This document shows, one piece after another, positions 1 through 24,060 of a DNA stretch of 40,883 nucleotides. Position numbers and translations under genes: made by a program. Position 1 is the first letter of the stretch, and each line of letters opens with the position of its first letter. Source of the stretch: a virus (lineage: Duplodnaviria > Heunggongvirae > Uroviricota > Caudoviricetes); IMG/VR virus record IMGVR_UViG_2909314774_000005. One strand, given 5' to 3'. Below the pieces are notes generated by a model. It was not told the origin of the DNA. It saw only the letters and a program-made list of their open reading frames with translations, and ran no database searches.

Positions 1-390
1 TTACTCTTTTTTCTCCGTATCTGCATCGGGTTCATCAGCAAATAGCTTGCCCTGCATCCGATCCAGTTCTTCTTTTCTTACCCGCTTAACCACGCTGTAG
101 ACCCACTGAAGCGAAACACCAAATTTGCGGGCCAGTTCGTGGTGGTTGCGTCCGTTAAACTCCCTGAAGATTTCCCGGTCGCGCTGACTGACCTTCCATA
201 CCATGCCCATCGGGAAATAAACGTTTTGCCCGCCCCAGACCTGCATCATTCGGTTCGCGACGGCCTGACCAATCTGGTCGGCAACTTCGGGCTCAATATC
301 AATAATCTCGCGAACGGTCTCAGAGGTATGCTGTGCCAGTTCCACCAGGAGTTCCGGCCCCTTACTTCGAAACTGATTCAGGTCGCTCAT
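1..390 (-). CDS. mor: Mor/C-family transcriptional activator (Mor-like, 129 aa)
   Basis: 129-aa ORF with Mor/C-family signature (GGQ.VY.P ... FNGRN ... C-terminal HTH), same length as Mu Mor; ATG preceded by GGGAG; last gene of the leftward early operon; its stop codon is the first 3 bases of the window. Confidence 0.85.
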   Translation of the reverse strand: MSDLNQFRSKGPELLVELAQHTSETVREIIDIEPEVADQIGQAVANRMMQVWGGQNVYFPMGMVWKVSQRDREIFREFNGRNHHELARKFGVSLQWVYSVVKRVRKEELDRMQGKLFADEPDADTEKKE

Positions 391-811
391 GTTTGACTCC
401 CGCAGCTCTGCGCTGCCACTTCTTCAGTTTCTCAATAACACTGCTTGCCTGTTCAGTACTGAGCCAGCGCAGGGCGCTGATGCCCGTTTCCCGCTTGATC
501 CACCTCGCTAATGCATTTTCTGAACGGTCACGAACAATGCCGGCAGCAGCCATTTCAAGCCATAGCGCACGAATTTTCCTGGACTGCGGATGGTTATCAA
601 GCGGTAAACCGGAGCTGGCTTTTCTGGCTGGTTTAACGCGAAAGCCTTTCTTTTTCATGGATTCCAGCACGCAGTTTAGTTGTGTGGTATCCATTCCTTT
701 GGTTGAGGCTTTACCGGTCAGCCCCTGTAACATCTGGCGGTAGGTGTCTTCATCCATACCCAGTTCATTACGGGCAATATGGATAAGCTGTATCAGGCGT
801 TTTTTCTGCAT
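362..811 (-). CDS. gemA: GemA-like early protein (Mu gp16/DUF1018-like)
   Basis: 149-aa ORF directly upstream of mor, overlapping it by 29 nt, as gemA-mor in Mu; N-terminal LIQLIHIARNELGMDEDTYRQML motif resembles the GemA family; ATG with AGGAG upstream. Confidence 0.7.
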   Translation of the reverse strand: MQKKRLIQLIHIARNELGMDEDTYRQMLQGLTGKASTKGMDTTQLNCVLESMKKKGFRVKPARKASSGLPLDNHPQSRKIRALWLEMAAAGIVRDRSENALARWIKRETGISALRWLSTEQASSVIEKLKKWQRRAAGVKHERPESVSK

Positions 812-812
812 A

Positions 813-1019
813 TCATCTCCTTTTTTTCAGTCTGTCGGCAACAATGTCGGTTGCAGCTGGCAGGGTGACTGGCCAGAACAACATGACGGCGGTCATGTAC
901 AGGATGTAATGCGCGGTGTCGTAGTGCCTGCCATAGCCCAGGGAACGATGAAGTCTTGCGCTGCATGATCCTGCGTACATATACCAGAAAAGAAAACAGA
1001 CAATGGTTTCAGTAGTCAT
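813..1019 (-). CDS. small hydrophobic protein (68 aa, two predicted TM segments)
   Basis: Internal ATG (residue 53) of the 813..1175 ORF, preceded by GGGGAGG; fills the gap between gemA and the upstream gene; hydrophobic stretches FLFWYMYAG and MTAVMLFWPVTLPAA. The longer 120-aa version would heavily overlap 1009..1239. Confidence 0.45.
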   Translation of the reverse strand: MTTETIVCFLFWYMYAGSCSARLHRSLGYGRHYDTAHYILYMTAVMLFWPVTLPAATDIVADRLKKRR

Positions 1020-1239
1020 TCTGAATACCTCCCCATTCGATATGAATATTACGGGCAGCAATGACAGGGTCGTTATTCCACCATGCACCTGACATGTATT
1101 TTTCAACCTGTTCGCGTCCGGCAATAACACCAATTGTGATCCCCGGCCTGACGTTCTTAAAAAAGGCGCGGGCAAAAAGGTATCTGGCAGATATTCGGCA
1201 GGCTTTTAATTTCCGGCTTTTACCTGATAGCGTAATCAT
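1009..1239 (-). CDS. hypothetical early protein (76 aa)
   Basis: ATG overlaps the stop of the upstream gene (ATGA) and is preceded by GGAGG; no recognisable motif. Confidence 0.55.
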   Translation of the reverse strand: MITLSGKSRKLKACRISARYLFARAFFKNVRPGITIGVIAGREQVEKYMSGAWWNNDPVIAARNIHIEWGGIQNDY

Positions 1240-1919
1240 CTGGCCTCCAGTTTCTGTTGTTCCTGCCCACTGACCGGGCGGTGCAGTCTGACGTTCTGCC
1301 CTTCACGAAACCCCGCATAGCGCGAGGCGTCGCCATTGCGGCTTCTTCCCGGTTTACGCGCCCTGGTGGTTTGCGTCTGCGGGTATTTATGTTCCAGCCA
1401 CTGCTGCATCAGTTCACGCTCATCATCGGTCAGGGCAAAGGACTGTATTTCACTGATAACGGCCAGCACCCAGCCTTCGGCAAACTGGTCTCCACGGCTG
1501 GTGCGGGTGGCGGTTTTTATTCTTTTGTTCTGTGCACTGATATACTGCTGACGCGCCTTTTTCAGCTGACGGGCCAGCACTTCCCAGGTGTATGCAGCCA
1601 GTGCCGCACGTTCCCGGTTGCCGTAGAACCCCACAGACGGATGCGTGCCGGGGTGAATGATGGAGTTAACACCAAATACCTCGCGGATGATGTTCATCAG
1701 GCCCAGCATGTAGCGCGGTGGACGGAGACTGCCTGTCGGCCAGTAGTGACTGATGGTTTCATCAATATCACTCATAGCAATGTCGGAATGTGTGATGCCG
1801 TGAACATCCATCAGTTTACGGGCTCGGCGCAGTGCCAGAGCGGCCTCGTGCGGGTTGCCGGATGCGGCCAGCGCCAGCAACTTTTTCAGTTTCTCAATGT
1901 GTTTATTCTGGTCTGTCAT
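1236..1919 (-). CDS. conserved phage early protein, DUF2786-like N-terminus (227 aa from the second ATG)
   Basis: N-terminal KLKKLLALAASGNPHEAALALRRARKLM helix typical of DUF2786-family phage proteins; start chosen at residue 13 ATG, which overlaps the upstream stop as ATGA; the ORF could also start at 1955. Confidence 0.65.
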   Translation of the reverse strand: MTDQNKHIEKLKKLLALAASGNPHEAALALRRARKLMDVHGITHSDIAMSDIDETISHYWPTGSLRPPRYMLGLMNIIREVFGVNSIIHPGTHPSVGFYGNRERAALAAYTWEVLARQLKKARQQYISAQNKRIKTATRTSRGDQFAEGWVLAVISEIQSFALTDDERELMQQWLEHKYPQTQTTRARKPGRSRNGDASRYAGFREGQNVRLHRPVSGQEQQKLEAR

Positions 1920-2131
1920 TGTTCTGTATCTCCGGTATTTTTCTGCCGTTTCCATGCCCGGACAGCGTCGGACAGCTCTTTCAGGCTGTATGCTGCTTTA
2001 AGCTTTTCCCATAACCACTGTGTTGTTATGTGCATCAGCAGGGCAGCCAGGGCTGCCCCCGCACTGAGGCATGTCGCCAGGCCAGTAAGAATCAGTGTCC
2101 ATGCGGTGATTTCCCTGAGTATGTCAGCCAT
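1916..2131 (-). CDS. small membrane protein (71 aa)
   Basis: ATG preceded by GGGAGG; one long hydrophobic segment WTLILTGLATCLSAGAALAALLM. Confidence 0.55.
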   Translation of the reverse strand: MADILREITAWTLILTGLATCLSAGAALAALLMHITTQWLWEKLKAAYSLKELSDAVRAWKRQKNTGDTEQ

Positions 2132-2145
2132 TGAATGCCTCCCGG

Positions 2146-2442
2146 TTACTCGTTCGTGTAAATCACGCCCAGTCGTGCAGCCAGACGTTCCAGTTTTTTC
2201 TGTTTGTGGAAGTCAATCAGCCGGTCCATCCCCTGAAGGCGCAGTTGCTCTGTCATGATTTCCACGTCTGCCAGCTCTGCCGCGAGGTCACTTTCGCTGC
2301 CCTGTCCGTTCAGGTTGCGGGCGGCACTGGCCGCCAGTTCAGCGGCCTCTTCTGCCAGTTTCAGGGCCTGTGCGTCCGGCCCGAAACGCTGCAGGGCCAG
2401 ACGGTAGAGGGCGGTGCGGGTGAGTTCGGTGTTTCGTGTCAT
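2146..2442 (-). CDS. MazG-like nucleotide pyrophosphohydrolase (98 aa)
   Basis: All-alpha MazG/NTP-PPase-like acidic motifs (LAEEAAELA ... ELADVEIM) at the expected spacing; ATG preceded by GAGGG. Confidence 0.55.
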   Translation of the reverse strand: MTRNTELTRTALYRLALQRFGPDAQALKLAEEAAELAASAARNLNGQGSESDLAAELADVEIMTEQLRLQGMDRLIDFHKQKKLERLAARLGVIYTNE

Positions 2443-2451
2443 GCCGCGCCC

Positions 2452-2724
2452 TCAGTGCTTCCGGCTGACGGTGATGTGCAGGCCGCCTTCTGCAGTGGTT
2501 TCCATCCGGTACGGCACCTCATGCTCTGCCGTGTGGGTGAGTGTGTTCATCAGTACCTGCAGGGCAGCCTCCTTTCCGTTGGTCGCCACAATGGCCTGTG
2601 TGGCCATGCTGATTAGCGCCGTCAGGACGTGCTTCACATCGGTGAGGTCGCGGCATTCACACTCGTTGACATAGTGTTCAACAAGGGTTCGGGTGCGCTG
2701 TCGTGCTTCCTGTGGGGTAATCAT
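2452..2724 (-). CDS. hypothetical early protein (90 aa)
   Basis: ATG overlapping the upstream stop (ATGA), GGGAGG upstream; no recognisable motif. Confidence 0.55.
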   Translation of the reverse strand: MITPQEARQRTRTLVEHYVNECECRDLTDVKHVLTALISMATQAIVATNGKEAALQVLMNTLTHTAEHEVPYRMETTAEGGLHITVSRKH

Positions 2725-2915
2725 TGCGAGTCCTCCCTGTCAGGGCGGGAGAATTCCATGACGGGCACGTCTGCCGAAAAATGCTGGCTGCAGTACGGGC
2801 AGACCAGGGTGACGCGTACCGCAGGGATGTGGTATTTACCGGACATCACGGCGATGGCGCTGTGAAAACGCAGGGCTGTTATATCCCTCTCGCACTGAAT
2901 ACATTTAAATATCAT
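2721..2915 (-). CDS. small zinc-ribbon-like protein (64 aa)
   Basis: Two CxxC pairs (CIQC ... CPYC) about 30 residues apart; ATG preceded by GAGGAG. Confidence 0.55.
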   Translation of the reverse strand: MIFKCIQCERDITALRFHSAIAVMSGKYHIPAVRVTLVCPYCSQHFSADVPVMEFSRPDREDSQ

Positions 2916-3012
2916 GATTTAATTCTCCTCTGTTTCCGGCGTGCAGAAGCCCGCGGCGCTGACGTCGGAATAAAAAAGAAAATGTTTTTATTAAATAATT
3001 AACGTGGTGTGT

Positions 3013-3543
3013 TTACTGCACATCCTGCTCAAAAGGAATTATTGAAAAATCCTCAATGTCGCTTTTAATGGAAATACCGGGAATATTTTTCACGGCCTCT
3101 TTTTCATTCAGGATAGCGTCTTTATTTATTTCCTCTTTTACACGAATAAAGCGCTCAAGCCCCAGACGTCTCAGTAATTCAATAACATTATCCGCCCCAC
3201 GGATACTGACTGATGGCGGACGGTTTCGCCACTGCACCTCGCCGGTGGTGAGGTTAGCGAACTTCACCTTCCCGTTGCCGGTCAGTTCATCACGGTGTGC
3301 CTCACACCATGTCTGAATACCGGACTGCAGTTCGGCCATGCGTTTTTTCAGGCTCTCGGTGAGCGGGGCATAACGTGCGGTGATATCGCCAATGGCGTCA
3401 TTCATTTCTGTTTCAGCCCTGACCAGTTCACGTTGTGCGTCACCGAGTAGTCTGATTCCCTCAATGACCTCTTCACGTGTCCCCGGCACCCAGAGTGCTG
3501 CTGCGGCCTTGATACGTTTTGCACCTTTTGTACTTTTTGCCAT
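3013..3543 (-). CDS. gam: host-nuclease inhibitor Gam (Mu Gam-like, Ku-like DNA end-binding)
   Basis: 176-aa ORF, length and sequence character of Mu Gam; position downstream of the B-like ATPase in the early operon matches Mu. Confidence 0.8.
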   Translation of the reverse strand: MAKSTKGAKRIKAAAALWVPGTREEVIEGIRLLGDAQRELVRAETEMNDAIGDITARYAPLTESLKKRMAELQSGIQTWCEAHRDELTGNGKVKFANLTTGEVQWRNRPPSVSIRGADNVIELLRRLGLERFIRVKEEINKDAILNEKEAVKNIPGISIKSDIEDFSIIPFEQDVQ

Positions 3544-3570
3544 TTTTTATGATTTCTCCAGTTGTGCTGA

Positions 3571-3840
3571 TTACCACAAAGATTCCGGCCACACGACGCG
3601 ACAGCCGTGCAGTTCGAAAACGCCCTGACGGAAATATCCCCTGTGGTCATGTCCGGTATACAGATAACAGGCCTTTCCCTGCTCAAGCATGCGCATGCAA
3701 TGCGCACTCCGGGAAACGCGGATGACAGGTTTGTTACCCCTGATGGTGATGCTTTGTACATCCGTGTTCGTCGCCTTAAGCGCCATAATGGCTGACTGCA
3801 CTTTGCTGATTTGCTGGTTGATACCTGTGGTGGATTTCAT
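3571..3840 (-). CDS. hypothetical early protein (89 aa), in the position of Mu kil-region genes
   Basis: ATG preceded by AAAGGGG, begins 3 nt after the ATPase gene stop; no recognisable motif. Confidence 0.5.
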   Translation of the reverse strand: MKSTTGINQQISKVQSAIMALKATNTDVQSITIRGNKPVIRVSRSAHCMRMLEQGKACYLYTGHDHRGYFRQGVFELHGCRVVWPESLW

Positions 3841-3842
3841 TA

Positions 3843-5009
3843 TTAAACCCCTTTGACAACGTCAGCGTTGACCTGTGGAACCCCGATTTCAGCGGCCAGA
3901 TTCATGGCGGCTATTACCAGGTTACTGACGGCCAGCGGATACAGCAGGCTGACCATATTTTTACGGTGACTTCCCGGATTGCTCAGGCGGGCACGTATGG
4001 CATCCACTGCACCGGCGTCCATAATGTCCGTCAGCTGTTTACCGGCCCGTTGCAGTTTGAACGTCAGAAATTCTTCAAGGTTATTGTCCAGAGGCAGAAG
4101 TTCGACCACCTCACAGCGCTGAACGACTTCACGGACTTCCATATTGCGTTCAGACAGTTTTGTCGCCAGTTCCGGCTGGCCAATCAGCACGATGGACAGC
4201 AGTTTTTTGAAACCGGACTCCAGCTCAAAAAAGCGTTTGAGGTGTTTCAGTGTCGGAATGGGCAGACTGTGGGCCTCCTCAATCACCAGAACGTGGCTGA
4301 ACCCCGCCTGGCTGCTGTCTTTCAGGACGCGATGCAACTGGCGAAAACGGGCGTCCTGACTGCGTCTGATGCTTTCCAGTGGTGCGATGGTACTGATAAT
4401 GGCTTCGGCAATAGCTGCTGCCTTCAGGGTTTTCCCTTTCACATCGTTGTCTTCCATAGCGATGATGTATGGCTCGATAACAATTACCGGCGCATTCTCG
4501 CGGTTGATACGTTCAGTCAGGTCGCGGCGCAGCGTGGATTTACCCGCACCGGACTCACCGATGACGGCCATAAACCCACCATGACGGGCTGTCTGGTACA
4601 GCGCCTCACGCACGTAGCGAATGTCCGGGGTGGTGAACACATCATCAGAACCCTGCATGGCTTCGTCGGCGAACGGGTCACGGAAAAGACCAAACGCTTT
4701 TTTGGTTGCTGGAAATAACACCTGTTTTTTGAGTAACATATTCTCTTCCTCACTGAGGCTCGTTTTATCTGTGGTACCCGCTGTACGGGGCGTGGCCGCG
4801 CCCTGTACAGCATCAAAACTCTTCGTTGTATCAATCCCCTGACTTTCCAGCCAGGACGCAAGACGCCGGCGCACTTCTCCGGGGCTGGTGCGGGGCCACG
4901 CGTTATGATTCACAATCTGGGCCAGCGTGGCCTCAGAAACATCGACAGCTCTCGCCACCACCGCCTGTGGAATACGGGCCTCTTTCAGTTGCTGCTTCAG
5001 TACCAGCAT
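3843..5009 (-). CDS. transposition AAA+ ATPase (MuB/TniB-like target DNA activator)
   Basis: Walker A GESGAGKST, Walker B-like VLVIEEAH; start taken at internal ATG (5009) preceded by GAGGAGGG, 10 nt after the transposase stop; the track ORF begins at an upstream GTG (5048). Confidence 0.85.
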   Translation of the reverse strand: MLVLKQQLKEARIPQAVVARAVDVSEATLAQIVNHNAWPRTSPGEVRRRLASWLESQGIDTTKSFDAVQGAATPRTAGTTDKTSLSEEENMLLKKQVLFPATKKAFGLFRDPFADEAMQGSDDVFTTPDIRYVREALYQTARHGGFMAVIGESGAGKSTLRRDLTERINRENAPVIVIEPYIIAMEDNDVKGKTLKAAAIAEAIISTIAPLESIRRSQDARFRQLHRVLKDSSQAGFSHVLVIEEAHSLPIPTLKHLKRFFELESGFKKLLSIVLIGQPELATKLSERNMEVREVVQRCEVVELLPLDNNLEEFLTFKLQRAGKQLTDIMDAGAVDAIRARLSNPGSHRKNMVSLLYPLAVSNLVIAAMNLAAEIGVPQVNADVVKGV

Positions 5010-5019
5010 GTTTCCCTCC

Positions 5020-6789
5020 TCAGTTGCCGTTAACAATGCTGATAACACTGCTGCGGGCCGGTGTGGTCAGCGTGGCCATGACTTCATCCAGTGCGGCTTC
5101 CGGTACGCCGTCCGGGTACTGTGCCGTTAACTGGCGGTAATGTTCCGGCGTCCAGGTAAGGCCGTCGGCGCTGAACTTATCGCGCAGGGCTTTCGCGGCC
5201 TCCACATGAGTCATGGGACGTTGTTCAGTGCGCGGCCCGCGTACGTCAGAGGCCTGACCACGCTTCGGCATATAGGCCGGAAGTGTGGTGTCGTCGATAT
5301 GTTTATACGGGTCAAGCCGCCCGCCGAACGGCAGCGCCTTCGCCTTGCGTGCGGCGGCTGCATCTGCGGCGTTGTCTGTACCGGTAACCAGCGCTTCGGT
5401 TTCTTTTGCCGCCATCTGTGCCGGGGTTTCCGGCAGGGCTTTGTAACTTTCGCCAAATACCGCCGCGCCTTCAGCAAAGCCAAACTCGTTCTTTCTGACC
5501 TCTTCGACCAGGAAGAACGTCTCGTGGCCGTCCTCACCGGTCAGAACCACCTGTGCCACATCGCTGCGCCATGGGTTACGGGTAATCATCAGTTTTTCAC
5601 CAACCAGTACGCCCGGTACCGTTGATACGTCAAATTCAGTGCCCCGGAACGAGACACGAAGTTTTGGCGTGACTTTGCGGAGTTCTGGTGCCGCCACAGC
5701 CAGTTCACGACATACCTCAACGGAAGGCGCTTTTTTCAGCTGCTCAGCAGTAATCTTCAGCCAGATATCCGTGCGGGTTTTACCGTGGCGGCTGTGAACA
5801 GCCGTGGCGTTAAAGTGGCTGCGCCATTTCGCGGCCAGCGCGTTGAGTTCTTCCAGACTGTGAACCGGCCGGAACTTCAGACCCGGCTCCAGCTTGCGTT
5901 CGATAATGTCACGCGCCTTTTCCACCTGTCCGGTGGCGCGGGCGTTATGCGGCTTGTGCGCTATCAGGTCGATGCCCAGTGAGCGGCACATGTTTTTCGT
6001 CATACCCGCGGTGTTTGCCGAGCCGGGGTCGAGATAGAGTATTTTCGGCACGCCGTGCAGCACGTCTGCGCCGCCACGCTCCTGCATGGCGTTGATAAGC
6101 ACAGAACACAGGTTCTCACCTGATTCCGCGCCCGTCACATACTCAACGTAAATCCAGCCGCTGGCATGGTCGGTAATCTCGTAACTCCACACGCGGTCAC
6201 TGGCGATACGGGCAAGGTTAGCGGGCTTGTTCTTGTAGAACTTCGCGCTGTCCATCACCTGCAGCCCTTTATGTCCATTGCTCAGGTAGTAAAGCGTGCA
6301 GAGTGAGGCGTCAATCTGCCAGACATGATTGGGATGCAGACTGGCCACTTCGGTATGTGGTGCAGGGGCATCCAGTTGTTCCGGGTGCAGGCCATAGTTA
6401 CGCAGAGCACGGCTGATGGCATCTTCAGACAACGGGAAAAACTCACTGGTGGTTTCATCTGTTCTGCCTGCGGTGATAAAGCCGTTAGCCCGCAGGGTTT
6501 CCACTGCATCTGCGATGGAATAGAGACGCTTACCGTTCTTGCGGGTGGCCTCACGCAGTGTGGCAGATATCAGCGCGGCTTCGTCGCGGGTCAGGGCGCT
6601 GCGCCCGGCATCGGCGCGTTTTTTGCGTTTATCAGTCACAGATACCTCCTTCAGCCTGCGCAGCAGAGTGGCGCGGGACATGCCAAGTTCAGCACAGGCA
6701 GCGTCGTATATTGCACCGCGTTTACCATGCCCCGCGTCACGTGCCGCGCGGGCTGTTTCAACCAGTTTTTCAGTCAGTGCCGGGGTCAT
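5020..6789 (-). CDS. DDE (rve/integrase-core) transposase of the transposable phage
   Basis: 589 aa; N-terminal HTH; DDE-like triad candidates (VWQIDAS, LYLDPGSAN, GQVEKA) in retroviral-integrase-like spacing; N-terminus unlike MuA as I recall it; sits just upstream of the AAA+ ATPase gene. Confidence 0.85.
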   Translation of the reverse strand: MTPALTEKLVETARAARDAGHGKRGAIYDAACAELGMSRATLLRRLKEVSVTDKRKKRADAGRSALTRDEAALISATLREATRKNGKRLYSIADAVETLRANGFITAGRTDETTSEFFPLSEDAISRALRNYGLHPEQLDAPAPHTEVASLHPNHVWQIDASLCTLYYLSNGHKGLQVMDSAKFYKNKPANLARIASDRVWSYEITDHASGWIYVEYVTGAESGENLCSVLINAMQERGGADVLHGVPKILYLDPGSANTAGMTKNMCRSLGIDLIAHKPHNARATGQVEKARDIIERKLEPGLKFRPVHSLEELNALAAKWRSHFNATAVHSRHGKTRTDIWLKITAEQLKKAPSVEVCRELAVAAPELRKVTPKLRVSFRGTEFDVSTVPGVLVGEKLMITRNPWRSDVAQVVLTGEDGHETFFLVEEVRKNEFGFAEGAAVFGESYKALPETPAQMAAKETEALVTGTDNAADAAAARKAKALPFGGRLDPYKHIDDTTLPAYMPKRGQASDVRGPRTEQRPMTHVEAAKALRDKFSADGLTWTPEHYRQLTAQYPDGVPEAALDEVMATLTTPARSSVISIVNGN

Positions 6790-6804
6790 AGCTTGTCTTC
6801 CCTG

Positions 6805-22643: not shown

Positions 22644-24060
22644 CTATCTGCATGGTCCCGAAACCATTGAGGTGGAAAACGGTGCCCGCCCGGTTAAAAC
22701 GGTGAAATCTGCCGTTATTGGCCTGATTGGTACCGCCCCGATGGGGGATGTCAATACGCTGGTACAGTGCCTGTCTGAGAAAGACGCAGCGGCATTTGGC
22801 AGCCAGTTCACCGGCTTTACCATTCCGCAGGCGCTGGATGCGATTTATGACCATGGTGCAGGCACCGTTCTGGTCATTAACGTCCTCGACCCGGCGAAAC
22901 ATAAAACGGCGATCGAGGATGAGGTGGTTACCTTTGACAAATCGACAGGGCAGGCCAGACTGGCGCATCCGGTTGTCGCTAATGTGGTGGTGAAAAACAG
23001 TGAAGGCAGCACCACCCACACGGCGAACACGGACTACCGTGTTGATGCGCAGGCGGGTGTGCTCACGAACCTGGGCAAGGCTATTGAGGCCGGTGGCAGC
23101 GTGAAGGTGAGCTATGAGTACGCGGACCCGTCGAAGGTGACTGCGGCGGACATCATCGGCGGGGTGAACAGCGCCGGAAACCGAACCGGCATGAAGCTGC
23201 TTAACGACAGCTTCAACCTGTACGGCTATTTCGCCAAAATTCTGATTGCGCCGGTGTTCTGCACCCAGAAGAGTGTCGCAGTTGAGCTTATCGCCATGGC
23301 AGAGAAGCTGGGCGCGGTAACCTACATTGATGCGCCTGTCGGTACCACCTTTGCACAGGCTCTGGCAGGTCGTGGCCCGGAAGGCACCATCAACTTCAAT
23401 ACCAGCTCCGACCGCGTCCGTCTGTGCTATCCGCATGTGAAGGTATATGACCCGGTGACAAACACAGAGCGTCTGGAGCCGCTCAGCCAGCGTGCAGCAG
23501 GTCTGCGTGCCAGAGTCGATCTGGACAAGGGCTACTGGTGGTCATCCTCCAATCAGGAGATTCTGGGGATCACCGGCGTGGAGCGCCAGCTGTCCGCGAT
23601 GATTGATGACCCGCAGAGTGAGGTGAACCTGCTTAACGAACAGGGGATCACCACGGTATTCAGCAGTTACGGCAGCGGCCTTCGTCTGTGGGGTAACCGG
23701 ACGGCAGCATGGCCAACGGTCACCCATATGCGTAACTTTGAGAACGTTCGCCGCACCGGTGATGTGATCAACGAGTCCATTCGTTATTTCAGCCAGCAGT
23801 ACATCGACATGCCGATTACTCAGGCGCTGATTGATGCACTGACGGAGTCGGTCAACGCCTACGGTCGCAAAATGACTGGTGATGGTGCGGTACTGGGCTT
23901 CCGTTGCTGGTTTGATCCGGCCCGCAATCCGGAGACGGAGCTGGCCGCCGGGCACCTGTTGCTGAGCTACAAATATACGCCACCACCGCCGCTGGAGCGA
24001 CTGACGTTTGAGACTGAGATCACCTCGGAATACCTGTTAACCCTGAAAGGGGGCAACTGA
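22633..24060 (+). CDS. contractile tail sheath protein (Mu L-like)
   Basis: 475-aa ORF, ATG preceded by GGAGGA, followed directly by the tube gene. Confidence 0.85.
   Translation: MAANYLHGPETIEVENGARPVKTVKSAVIGLIGTAPMGDVNTLVQCLSEKDAAAFGSQFTGFTIPQALDAIYDHGAGTVLVINVLDPAKHKTAIEDEVVTFDKSTGQARLAHPVVANVVVKNSEGSTTHTANTDYRVDAQAGVLTNLGKAIEAGGSVKVSYEYADPSKVTAADIIGGVNSAGNRTGMKLLNDSFNLYGYFAKILIAPVFCTQKSVAVELIAMAEKLGAVTYIDAPVGTTFAQALAGRGPEGTINFNTSSDRVRLCYPHVKVYDPVTNTERLEPLSQRAAGLRARVDLDKGYWWSSSNQEILGITGVERQLSAMIDDPQSEVNLLNEQGITTVFSSYGSGLRLWGNRTAAWPTVTHMRNFENVRRTGDVINESIRYFSQQYIDMPITQALIDALTESVNAYGRKMTGDGAVLGFRCWFDPARNPETELAAGHLLLSYKYTPPPPLERLTFETEITSEYLLTLKGGN

Follow-up and report, generated by a model that had tools for sequence, protein, structure and literature searches.

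A Probable Accessory Early Segment in a BcepMu-Type Transposable Escherichia coli Prophage, with a Predicted Remote Relative of Mu Kil and a Conserved Hairpin after gam

Introduction

What are the small genes lodged between the transposition ATPase gene and gemA of a Mu-like phage for: the takeover of the host, the neutralization of its immunity, or the handling of the phage's own DNA? We addressed this question for a stretch of 40,883 nucleotides (IMG/VR record IMGVR_UViG_2909314774_000005; hereafter the window), in which positions 813-3840 hold a run of nine small open reading frames (ORFs) on the minus strand. An original prediction, made from the letters of the sequence without database searches, had singled out this run as a cluster of early genes and candidate host-takeover or anti-defence functions, and had compared it to the semi-essential early region of phage Mu. 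Our analysis makes it likely that 813-3840 is the accessory ("semi-essential early") segment of a single early operon in a BcepMu-type transposable prophage of E. coli. Two elements within it, namely the gene directly after the ATPase (orfA), which we link to Mu Kil, and a hairpin after gam, receive most of our attention below.

Results

The early operon and its counterparts in Mu and BcepMu

Over bases 1-6800, the window matches Escherichia phage PhiKM at 100% identity; PhiKM is a transposable prophage of the BcepMu type from uropathogenic E. coli and is classified in Bcepmuvirus. The literature on PhiKM and ST131 that was searched yielded nothing of relevance. As in BcepMu, the early genes are transcribed leftward, with gemA and mor coming last at the genome end. 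Neighboring genes of the cluster are separated by no more than 27 nt or overlap in the ATGA manner, as do those for the zinc-ribbon protein Zn64 and orf90, and ribosome-binding sites are visible across the entire cluster; the sole exception to this tight packing is a gap of 97 nt after gam. The Prokaryotic Genome Annotation Pipeline (PGAP) annotation of an identical prophage from sequence type 131 (ST131) has exactly the same nine genes, and each of them matches a PHROG family with an E-value of about 1e-34 to 1e-77. Those cluster genes for which the ratio of nonsynonymous to synonymous substitution rates (dN/dS) could be estimated are under purifying selection, with values of 0.13-0.45 (Table 1); saturation of dS left TM68 without an estimate. 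Neither Pfam nor PHROGs matched the long ORFs that overlap the cluster on the plus strand. Thus, the PGAP calls, PHROG matches, dN/dS values and the emptiness of the plus-strand ORFs together confirm the claimed cluster of nine minus-strand ORFs between the ATPase gene and gemA. At 2721-2915, the four conserved cysteines, the dN/dS value and PGAP favor the minus-strand gene over the plus-strand ORF, which lacks a family match. The GenBank record of PhiKM has a plus-strand hypothetical ORF at window 2724-3002 (record 23520-23741) and leaves out the minus-strand zinc-ribbon gene.

The comparison with the early region of Mu (kil to gemA/mor) bears out the equivalence that had been proposed: both occupy the part of a single early operon that runs from the B ATPase to gemA/mor, both start with a gene of actual or predicted Kil type, both contain gam followed by a gap of ~98 nt with a related GGCG/CGCC hairpin, and both continue as a run of small genes, most of which are uncharacterized. 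The differences are equally clear. This region has only Kil (remotely), Gam, GemA and Mor in common with Mu, the PHROG families of Mu gp6-gp9 and gp11-gp14 are other than those of the cluster genes, the transposase and ATPase of the window are of the BcepMu type (rve/ExeA-like), and the window has its early region in inverted orientation with respect to the late genes, a trait shared with BcepMu. With gp01-gp09 of BcepMu itself (Bcepmuvirus), the window shares the order Mor, GemA, accessory genes, ATPase and transposase, an ATPase with 59% identity (gp08, "DNA transposition protein"), a small gene right after the ATPase gene (gp07, a weak match to the orfA profile and its PHROG family) and a pyrophosphatase within the accessory block. 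However, BcepMu has a DUF3164 protein in place of Gam, carries HU and a single-stranded DNA-binding protein (SSB) in addition, and is without the zinc ribbon, orf90, DUF2786/DUF7168, orf76 and the hydrophobic proteins; moreover, its pyrophosphatase, gp06, goes undetected by the family profile of the window's MazG-like protein, MazG98. The family profiles of Zn64, orf90, MazG98, TM71, DUF2786/DUF7168, orf76 and TM68 found no counterpart in Mu or BcepMu.

Table 1. Early-region features of the window. The dN/dS values are pooled over 6-47 distinct alleles per gene from 80 related viral contigs; lengths are in amino acids (aa) and pI is the isoelectric point.
Feature	Coordinates	Strand	dN/dS	Description
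ATPase (flank)	3843..5009	-	0.07	MuB-equivalent AAA_22/ExeA-type transposition ATPase; PF13401 E 3.6e-20
orfA	3571..3840	-	0.13	89 aa; first gene after the transposition ATPase; predicted remote Mu Kil homologue
Gam	3013..3543	-	0.16	176 aa; Mu Gam-type, predicted DNA-end-binding protein/host nuclease inhibitor
Hairpin	2930..2983	-		Conserved, non-coding; in the 97-nt Gam/Zn-ribbon gap
Zn64	2721..2915	-	0.25	64 aa; four-cysteine zinc-ribbon protein; phrog_3401
orf90	2452..2724	-	0.44	90 aa; phrog_3691; patchy across relatives
MazG98	2146..2442	-	0.19	98 aa; predicted divergent single-domain all-alpha nucleoside triphosphate (NTP) pyrophosphohydrolase (MazG/HisE superfamily); phrog_2245
TM71	1916..2131	-	0.45 (few alleles)	71 aa; single-pass membrane protein; phrog_3958
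DUF2786+DUF7168 protein	1236..1919	-	0.22	227 aa; pI 10.1
orf76	1009..1239	-	0.27	76 aa; pI 10.2; phrog_3681
TM68	813..1019	-		68 aa; small hydrophobic, two aromatic-rich segments; phrog_6436
GemA (flank)	362..811	-	0.13	Mu gp16 family; PF06252 E 8.3e-41; PGAP "gp16 family"
Mor	390..1	-		Downstream of GemA; PGAP "Mor transcription activator"

The first gene after the ATPase is a predicted relative of Mu Kil

The orfA protein bears the PGAP name "HI_1482 family" and belongs to the PHROG family phrog_2041. When 1.8 billion representative proteins were searched exhaustively with a profile, a small family was recovered, comprising 84 representatives of 85-110 aa at E<=0.001, whose common features are a "P-V-I-R-I" strand and a C-terminal "G-C-R-V-x-W-S-E-S-L-H" motif. 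Among the 447 ORFs of five comparison loci, the top match of the family profile outside the family was Mu Kil (E 8e-4), followed by BcepMu gp07 (E 0.055); the genes for both are situated immediately downstream of the ATPase gene of their own phage. Profile-profile alignment of orfA and Mu Kil with hhalign returned a probability of 79.5% and an E-value of 1.5e-5 over 69 of the 74 Kil columns. The profile score was 30.0; shuffling the columns 200 times gave 10.2+-2.1 with a maximum of 17.4, and reversing the alignment gave 13.0. We also scanned 28 members of the family against all 38,880 PHROGs: the Kil PHROGs emerged as the top families after the members' own, phrog_2743 in nine of the 28 and phrog_6381 in eight. 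The orfA of the window itself recovers the Kil family phrog_6381 as its second-best family (E 0.019, residues 7-87), and BcepMu gp07, in turn, matches phrog_2041 (E 0.008).

Members of the family are encoded by the first gene after the ATPase gene in the window, in KP12, in EcPF16 and in locus L245, where a 33%-identical version directly follows a MuA-type transposase and a MuB-type ATPase. One extra ORF intervenes in L244 and in L243, in the latter of which the member lies between the ATPase (B) and Gam genes. Set beside Mu Kil (Mup05; PHROGs 2743 and 6381), orfA shares the location immediately after B, the small size (89 aa vs 74 aa in Kil) and a common "P-(V/I)-(I/L)-x-I" strand with a C-terminal "G-C-(R/Q)-(V/I)-x-W" motif. 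It differs in that the identity is only ~17%, in that it has an extra internal segment, and in being filed apart from Kil by both PHROGs and PGAP. The AF2 model of orfA (predicted local distance difference test score, pLDDT, 89) has the element order a-b-b-a-b-b-b; a Foldseek search against viral models returned only uncharacterized proteins, with Mu Kil not among them. Separately, we found a repetitive 419-aa protein (P0140) with four stretches that match the C-terminal motif of the orfA family (YKQA(L/V)FTL(Q/H)GCYKVLWQQH).

Judged from these profile comparisons, orfA is a predicted remote homologue of Mu Kil, with a similarity beyond that arising by chance, and we infer that it has a Kil-like, host-directed role. 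To our knowledge, the function of Mu Kil, known since 1989, has never been explained in terms of mechanism. In the part of PMC3961180 that cites Waggoner et al. 1989, expression of Mu kil is described as turning E. coli cells spherical. The original prediction had listed three proteins with no motif: two of these, orf90 and orf76, are still without a match beyond their own PHROG, and the third, orfA, has now acquired Kil as a putative relative.

A conserved hairpin separates gam from the distal genes

The gap after gam contains a hairpin made up of a T-rich tract and a 7-bp stem, CCG(A/G)CGT/ACGCCGG (2968-2962 with 2942-2936), with CAG/CTG and GCC/GGC as inner pairs, and an AAACAG that precedes the ribosome-binding site. 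This element is nearly identical in relatives whose zinc-ribbon proteins are only 28-58% identical and in which the upstream gene codes for either Gam or a DUF3164 protein. Across 15 sequences, 94.9% of cells are paired, as against 30-46% with slid partners; three pairs are changed on both sides, and the RNA fold has a z-score of -2.96. Each prophage carries it once, and E. coli genomes are otherwise free of it. At the same place in Mu (L006:6349-6423), and also in 50-odd Mu-like contigs, we found a related hairpin with a GGCG(Y)/(R)CGCC core and the AAACAG tail. Some more distant Mu-like phages (L217, L220 and L224) have different hairpins with covarying stems directly after gam, and no such element was seen at the Gam loci of other bacterial classes.

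We considered several conventional identities for this hairpin and rejected them. An intrinsic terminator is at odds with the AAACAG that follows the stem and with the T-run, which is upstream on both strands, and the terminator scan was negative. A promoter, a known RNA family and a host repeat were likewise set aside after a promoter scan, an Rfam search and searches of E. coli genomes (in the cluster, the promoter and terminator scans gave no signal above chance and Rfam no match). The hairpin probably acts at the RNA level, in the processing, stability or translation of the distal genes.

Gam and its DUF3164 alternative

The prediction of a Gam protein was fully upheld. The match to PF07352 (E 9.9e-41) scores 139.6 bits, with the cut-off at 28.3, and covers positions 1-148 of the 149 in the profile; over 169 residues the protein is 61.5% identical to Mu Gam, and it also matches phrog_491 (E 5.5e-73). 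By sequence, it is unambiguously placed in the Mu Gam family, and it is the only protein of the cluster in the PHROG "host takeover" category. Mu Gam is a Ku-like DNA-end binder that shields linear DNA from RecBCD, and RecBCD inhibitors of this type count as counter-defence. In many close relatives, and likewise in BcepMu, the exact slot of Gam (window 3013-3543) is taken by a DUF3164 protein (L003:2616-3227; L005:6297-6908; L007:1928-2545). No homology between the two was detectable with hhalign (probability 0.1%), and the shared slot suggests that Gam and DUF3164 are functional analogues. In a prophage from a Burkholderiaceae metagenome-assembled genome (L145), the sequence right after gam (about 2002-2115) encodes a DUF2786 motif (KCLALAKSSNEHEAANALRQAQKL), and therefore DUF2786 directly follows Gam there.

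A predicted divergent MazG-like enzyme

MazG98 matches phrog_2245 ("nucleoside triphosphate pyrophosphohydrolase", E 5.5e-34) and carries the identical name in PGAP; as a single sequence, it has no sequence match in the PDB. Within its family alignments E31, D59 and E61 are invariant and E32, E35 and E56 nearly so, which corresponds to the metal-binding motif EExxE...ExxD (E31-E32-x-x-E35 and E56-x-x-D59) and aligns with that of 5ie9 and 2q73. The family profile recovers these and other MazG-like and HisE structures from the PDB (5ie9, 2q73, 2q5z, 1yvw, 2gta and 1vmg; E 0.007-0.27), and at E<0.01 seven of 23 family members match the Pfam MazG family and four the PRA-PH family. These member-level matches, taken with the score of MazG98 itself below the Pfam cut-off, support relatedness at the superfamily level but not membership in a curated family. 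Accordingly, the label "MazG-like" stands as far as the superfamily motif, PHROG and PGAP carry it, and falls short for MazG98 alone in Pfam. We accept MazG98 as a predicted member of the MazG/HisE superfamily of all-alpha NTP pyrophosphohydrolases, with predicted enzyme activity. Two related loci (L079:7905-8414 and L081:7605-8114) code for a longer MazG variant of 169 aa, in which ~70 residues are added at the C-terminus.

The classical role of MazG is the house-cleaning of dNTP pools. Another precedent comes from the phage MazG-like protein Atd1, which depletes (p)ppGpp and guards against TIR-STING toxicity (bioRxiv 10.1101/2022.06.09.495361). Like Atd1 of Pectobacterium phage PcCB7V and the cyanophage MazG, MazG98 is a phage-encoded single all-alpha NTP pyrophosphohydrolase domain with the EExxE...ExxD motif; it differs from them in being very short and in forming a divergent branch that is not recognized by Pfam MazG, and the likeness to Atd1 is one of description. 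A further lead concerns colicin E9, a DNase colicin. In transposon-directed insertion-site sequencing (TraDIS) of ST131 strain NCTC 13441 under colicin E9 with ethylenediaminetetraacetic acid (EDTA), disruption of WP_001295929, which is identical to MazG98, lowered fitness (log fold change, logFC, -1.96; q 9.7e-9); it was the only non-envelope gene in the table, and the authors are silent on it (PMC6351738). This result is a lead rather than proof because the insertion may be polar on downstream genes.

The remaining small proteins

In Zn64, the cysteines C5-x2-C8 and C39-P-x-C42 are all invariant across 36 distinct alleles, down to 28% identity; the zinc-ribbon label that had been proposed is borne out by these two CxxC knuckles, and matches to the Pfam zinc-finger models are sub-threshold, with none above cut-off in the PDB or curated families. 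The orf90 protein keeps C22-x-C24, H64, H90 and a LISMA..A.VATNG core invariant in ten alleles that range down to 41% identity. The eight alleles of orf76 share 42 invariant positions, and orf76 is 73% identical in locus L085, where the identity of orfA is only 50%. In the PDB, neither the single sequences nor the family profiles of orfA, orf90, orf76 and the DUF2786/DUF7168 protein had a match; neither orf90 nor orf76 has a Pfam or NCBIfam match, and NCBIfam and the defence-system models of PADLOC gave no meaningful match for any protein of the cluster, orf90 included.

The DUF2786-like label was confirmed and extended, with two Pfam domains above their curated cut-offs in the usual N-to-C order: DUF2786 (PF10979; 42.9 bits, cut-off 23.9; residues 20-56 of the 239-aa ORF) and DUF7168 (PF23771; 90.4 bits, cut-off 25.5; residues 58-201). 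The structural model has an N-terminal helical hairpin and a KH-like alpha/beta core. We compared the latter to the type-I KH domain, and the defining arrangement of that domain (a beta-alpha-alpha-beta-beta-alpha fold with a GXXG loop between the first two helices) was not found. In the literature, there was nothing on DUF7168, and DUF2786 appeared in annotation mentions only. From its basic composition and modeled fold, this protein possibly binds nucleic acids. As for the two small membrane proteins that had been predicted, TM71 has one clear transmembrane segment (Kyte-Doolittle-19 maximum 1.98, residues 12-36) and TM68 is borderline hydrophobic, with a maximum of only 1.52; its start at 1019 is consistent with PGAP.

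Mosaic gene content

Across 80 related loci, orf90, TM71, orf76, MazG and DUF2786 are each present in some only, with other small ORFs taking their place. TM71, which is present in part of the E. coli lineage, is a clean 215-bp insertion/deletion in comparison with strain B7A (L004:3436-3741). There, in the absence of TM71, a 101-aa MazG allele ends in the last seven codons of TM71 (TGDTEQ-stop), and this match keeps the overlap with the start codon of the DUF2786 gene. The alleles of TM68 are either 83-100% or 32-43% identical alongside orf76 and GemA that are 95-100% identical, a pattern that looks like replacement by recombination. Comparison of the loci indicates that the cluster genes are exchanged as cassettes among related prophages, and such mosaic, cassette-like content is typical of an accessory locus.

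Discussion

A model for the early segment and the points against it

The layout, selection and counterparts described above argue for an accessory early segment. In our model, after induction or infection, transcription from an early promoter would run leftward through the transposase, the AAA ATPase, the nine translationally coupled small genes, gemA and mor. The first of the nine, orfA, would encode a protein of the Kil type that disturbs the growth or the shape of the host cell, and Gam would bind the ends of the linear infecting DNA and shield it from RecBCD, both by homology. Also by homology, MazG98 would hydrolyze a nucleotide, be it a non-canonical (d)NTP, an alarmone or a signal nucleotide, with (p)ppGpp as one candidate, so that the infected cell stays productive. 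The zinc ribbon, orf90, orf76, the DUF2786/DUF7168 protein and the two hydrophobic proteins would, in the simplest view, be lineage-specific accessory factors that tune the host or phage replication, and the hairpin would divide the A-B-kil-gam block from the more variable distal genes. Several points weigh against this model: the functions of the cluster genes are throughout predicted from sequence; five of the nine genes are without any functional lead; MazG98 alone scores below the Pfam cut-off (15.5 vs 21.3 bits for PRA-PH) and has no match to Pfam MazG; the covariation in the hairpin is limited because most of its pairs are simply invariant; and the hairpin could act as DNA instead of RNA.

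The proposal of host-takeover and anti-defence candidates thus fares unevenly. The putative Kil relative, Gam and MazG98 fit host takeover; the zinc ribbon, orf90, orf76, DUF2786/DUF7168 and the membrane proteins have no tie to defence systems in the libraries or the PDB entries searched, and a strict anti-defence label for them would be a guess. None of the nine has the homology to known structural or regulatory proteins that the original prediction had named as evidence against itself. The cluster is, therefore, a sensible but unproven place to seek host-takeover or anti-defence functions.

Alternative readings

It is possible, though somewhat unlikely, that the unassigned genes for the most part supply accessory factors with which the phage handles its own DNA (replicative transposition, end handling, nucleoid proteins and nucleotide-pool sanitizing) and do not serve host takeover or anti-defence. 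The corresponding slot of BcepMu holds SSB, HU, DUF3164 and a pyrophosphatase; the DUF2786/DUF7168 protein is basic, has a KH-like core and directly follows Gam in the Burkholderiaceae prophage; the zinc ribbon and the basic orf76 could bind nucleic acids; and the classical role of MazG is one of this kind. However, core replication factors are not expected to come and go among prophages with ATPases that are 93-100% identical.

We regard it as unlikely that the cluster is mainly an anti-defence island, in which several of the small proteins besides Gam, drawn from the zinc ribbon, orf90, orf76, MazG98 and the DUF2786/DUF7168 protein, would each neutralize a specific bacterial immune system. 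Such a role would agree with the cassette-like presence and absence of genes among close relatives, with expression from the early operon before DNA replication, with Gam as a counter-defence factor, with the precedent of Atd1 in blocking TIR-STING toxicity and with the standing of WP_001295929 as the only non-envelope fitness gene in the ST131 colicin E9 screen. On the other hand, that screen was not followed up and may reflect polarity, no ORF is similar to a characterized anti-defence protein in the general libraries PHROGs, Pfam, NCBIfam and PDB, the dN/dS values are those of ordinary purifying selection and not of an arms race, and the equivalent region of Mu (kil, gam, gemA and others) has mostly host-physiology and DNA functions.

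A two-part reading, of which either part might hold alone, we consider doubtful: MazG98, perhaps together with the zinc ribbon as its constant neighbor, would be a counter-defence or stress-survival factor, and the hairpin an undescribed regulatory RNA element of Mu-type phages. If true, MazG98 would destroy an alarmone or immune signaling nucleotide, which would explain the fitness loss of ST131 under colicin E9, and the hairpin would set the expression ratio of the core early versus the accessory genes.

It is more improbable still that TM71 and TM68 belong to the moron type and serve the lysogen, for instance by excluding superinfecting phages or altering the envelope, and not lytic growth. 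TM71 does behave as a clean insertion/deletion cassette, and the occurrence of two TM68 alleles of ~40% identity in neighborhoods that are 95-100% identical is a pattern typical of surface or exclusion functions; yet the promoter scan revealed none of their own, translation of both genes is coupled to that of the adjoining genes within the repressed early operon, and the hydrophobicity of TM68 is borderline. Finally, one might suspect that, in this GC-rich region, some of the small ORFs are open by chance and are not genes, since several are short (64-90 aa) and without a Pfam family and since long antisense ORFs occur as well. This is hardly credible given that every one of them belongs to a PHROG family, invariant residues persist in homologues with as little as 28-45% identity, dN/dS stays below 0.5, the gene junctions are coupled and the antisense ORFs have no family matches.

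Conclusions

Of 5426 complete E. coli genomes, 628 contain the accessory early segment at 813-3840, which in almost all cases is chromosomal and present in a single copy; O25b:H4-ST131 strains are among the carriers. The prophage sites vary by strain (beside ycaL in ST131, beside ybaV in B7A and within a truncated glcF in EcPF16), as expected for a transposable phage. The related prophage in EcPF16 interrupts glcF (L005:3172-3858), which is annotated as a truncated pseudogene. The prophage is, thus, present in about one in nine complete E. coli genomes, the pandemic ST131 lineage among them, and its early accessory genes would therefore be expressed in many clinical strains upon induction.

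What we describe is an ordinary phage region of a known type, to which the Kil link and the hairpin are modest additions, and the understanding of transposable phages is unchanged by these results. Even so, genes that had been listed as "hypothetical proteins" now come with specific hypotheses that are cheap to test. The predicted Kil link widens a function of Mu to a larger family with a confident structural model, and the hairpin, being common to Mu, offers a small and testable candidate regulatory element.

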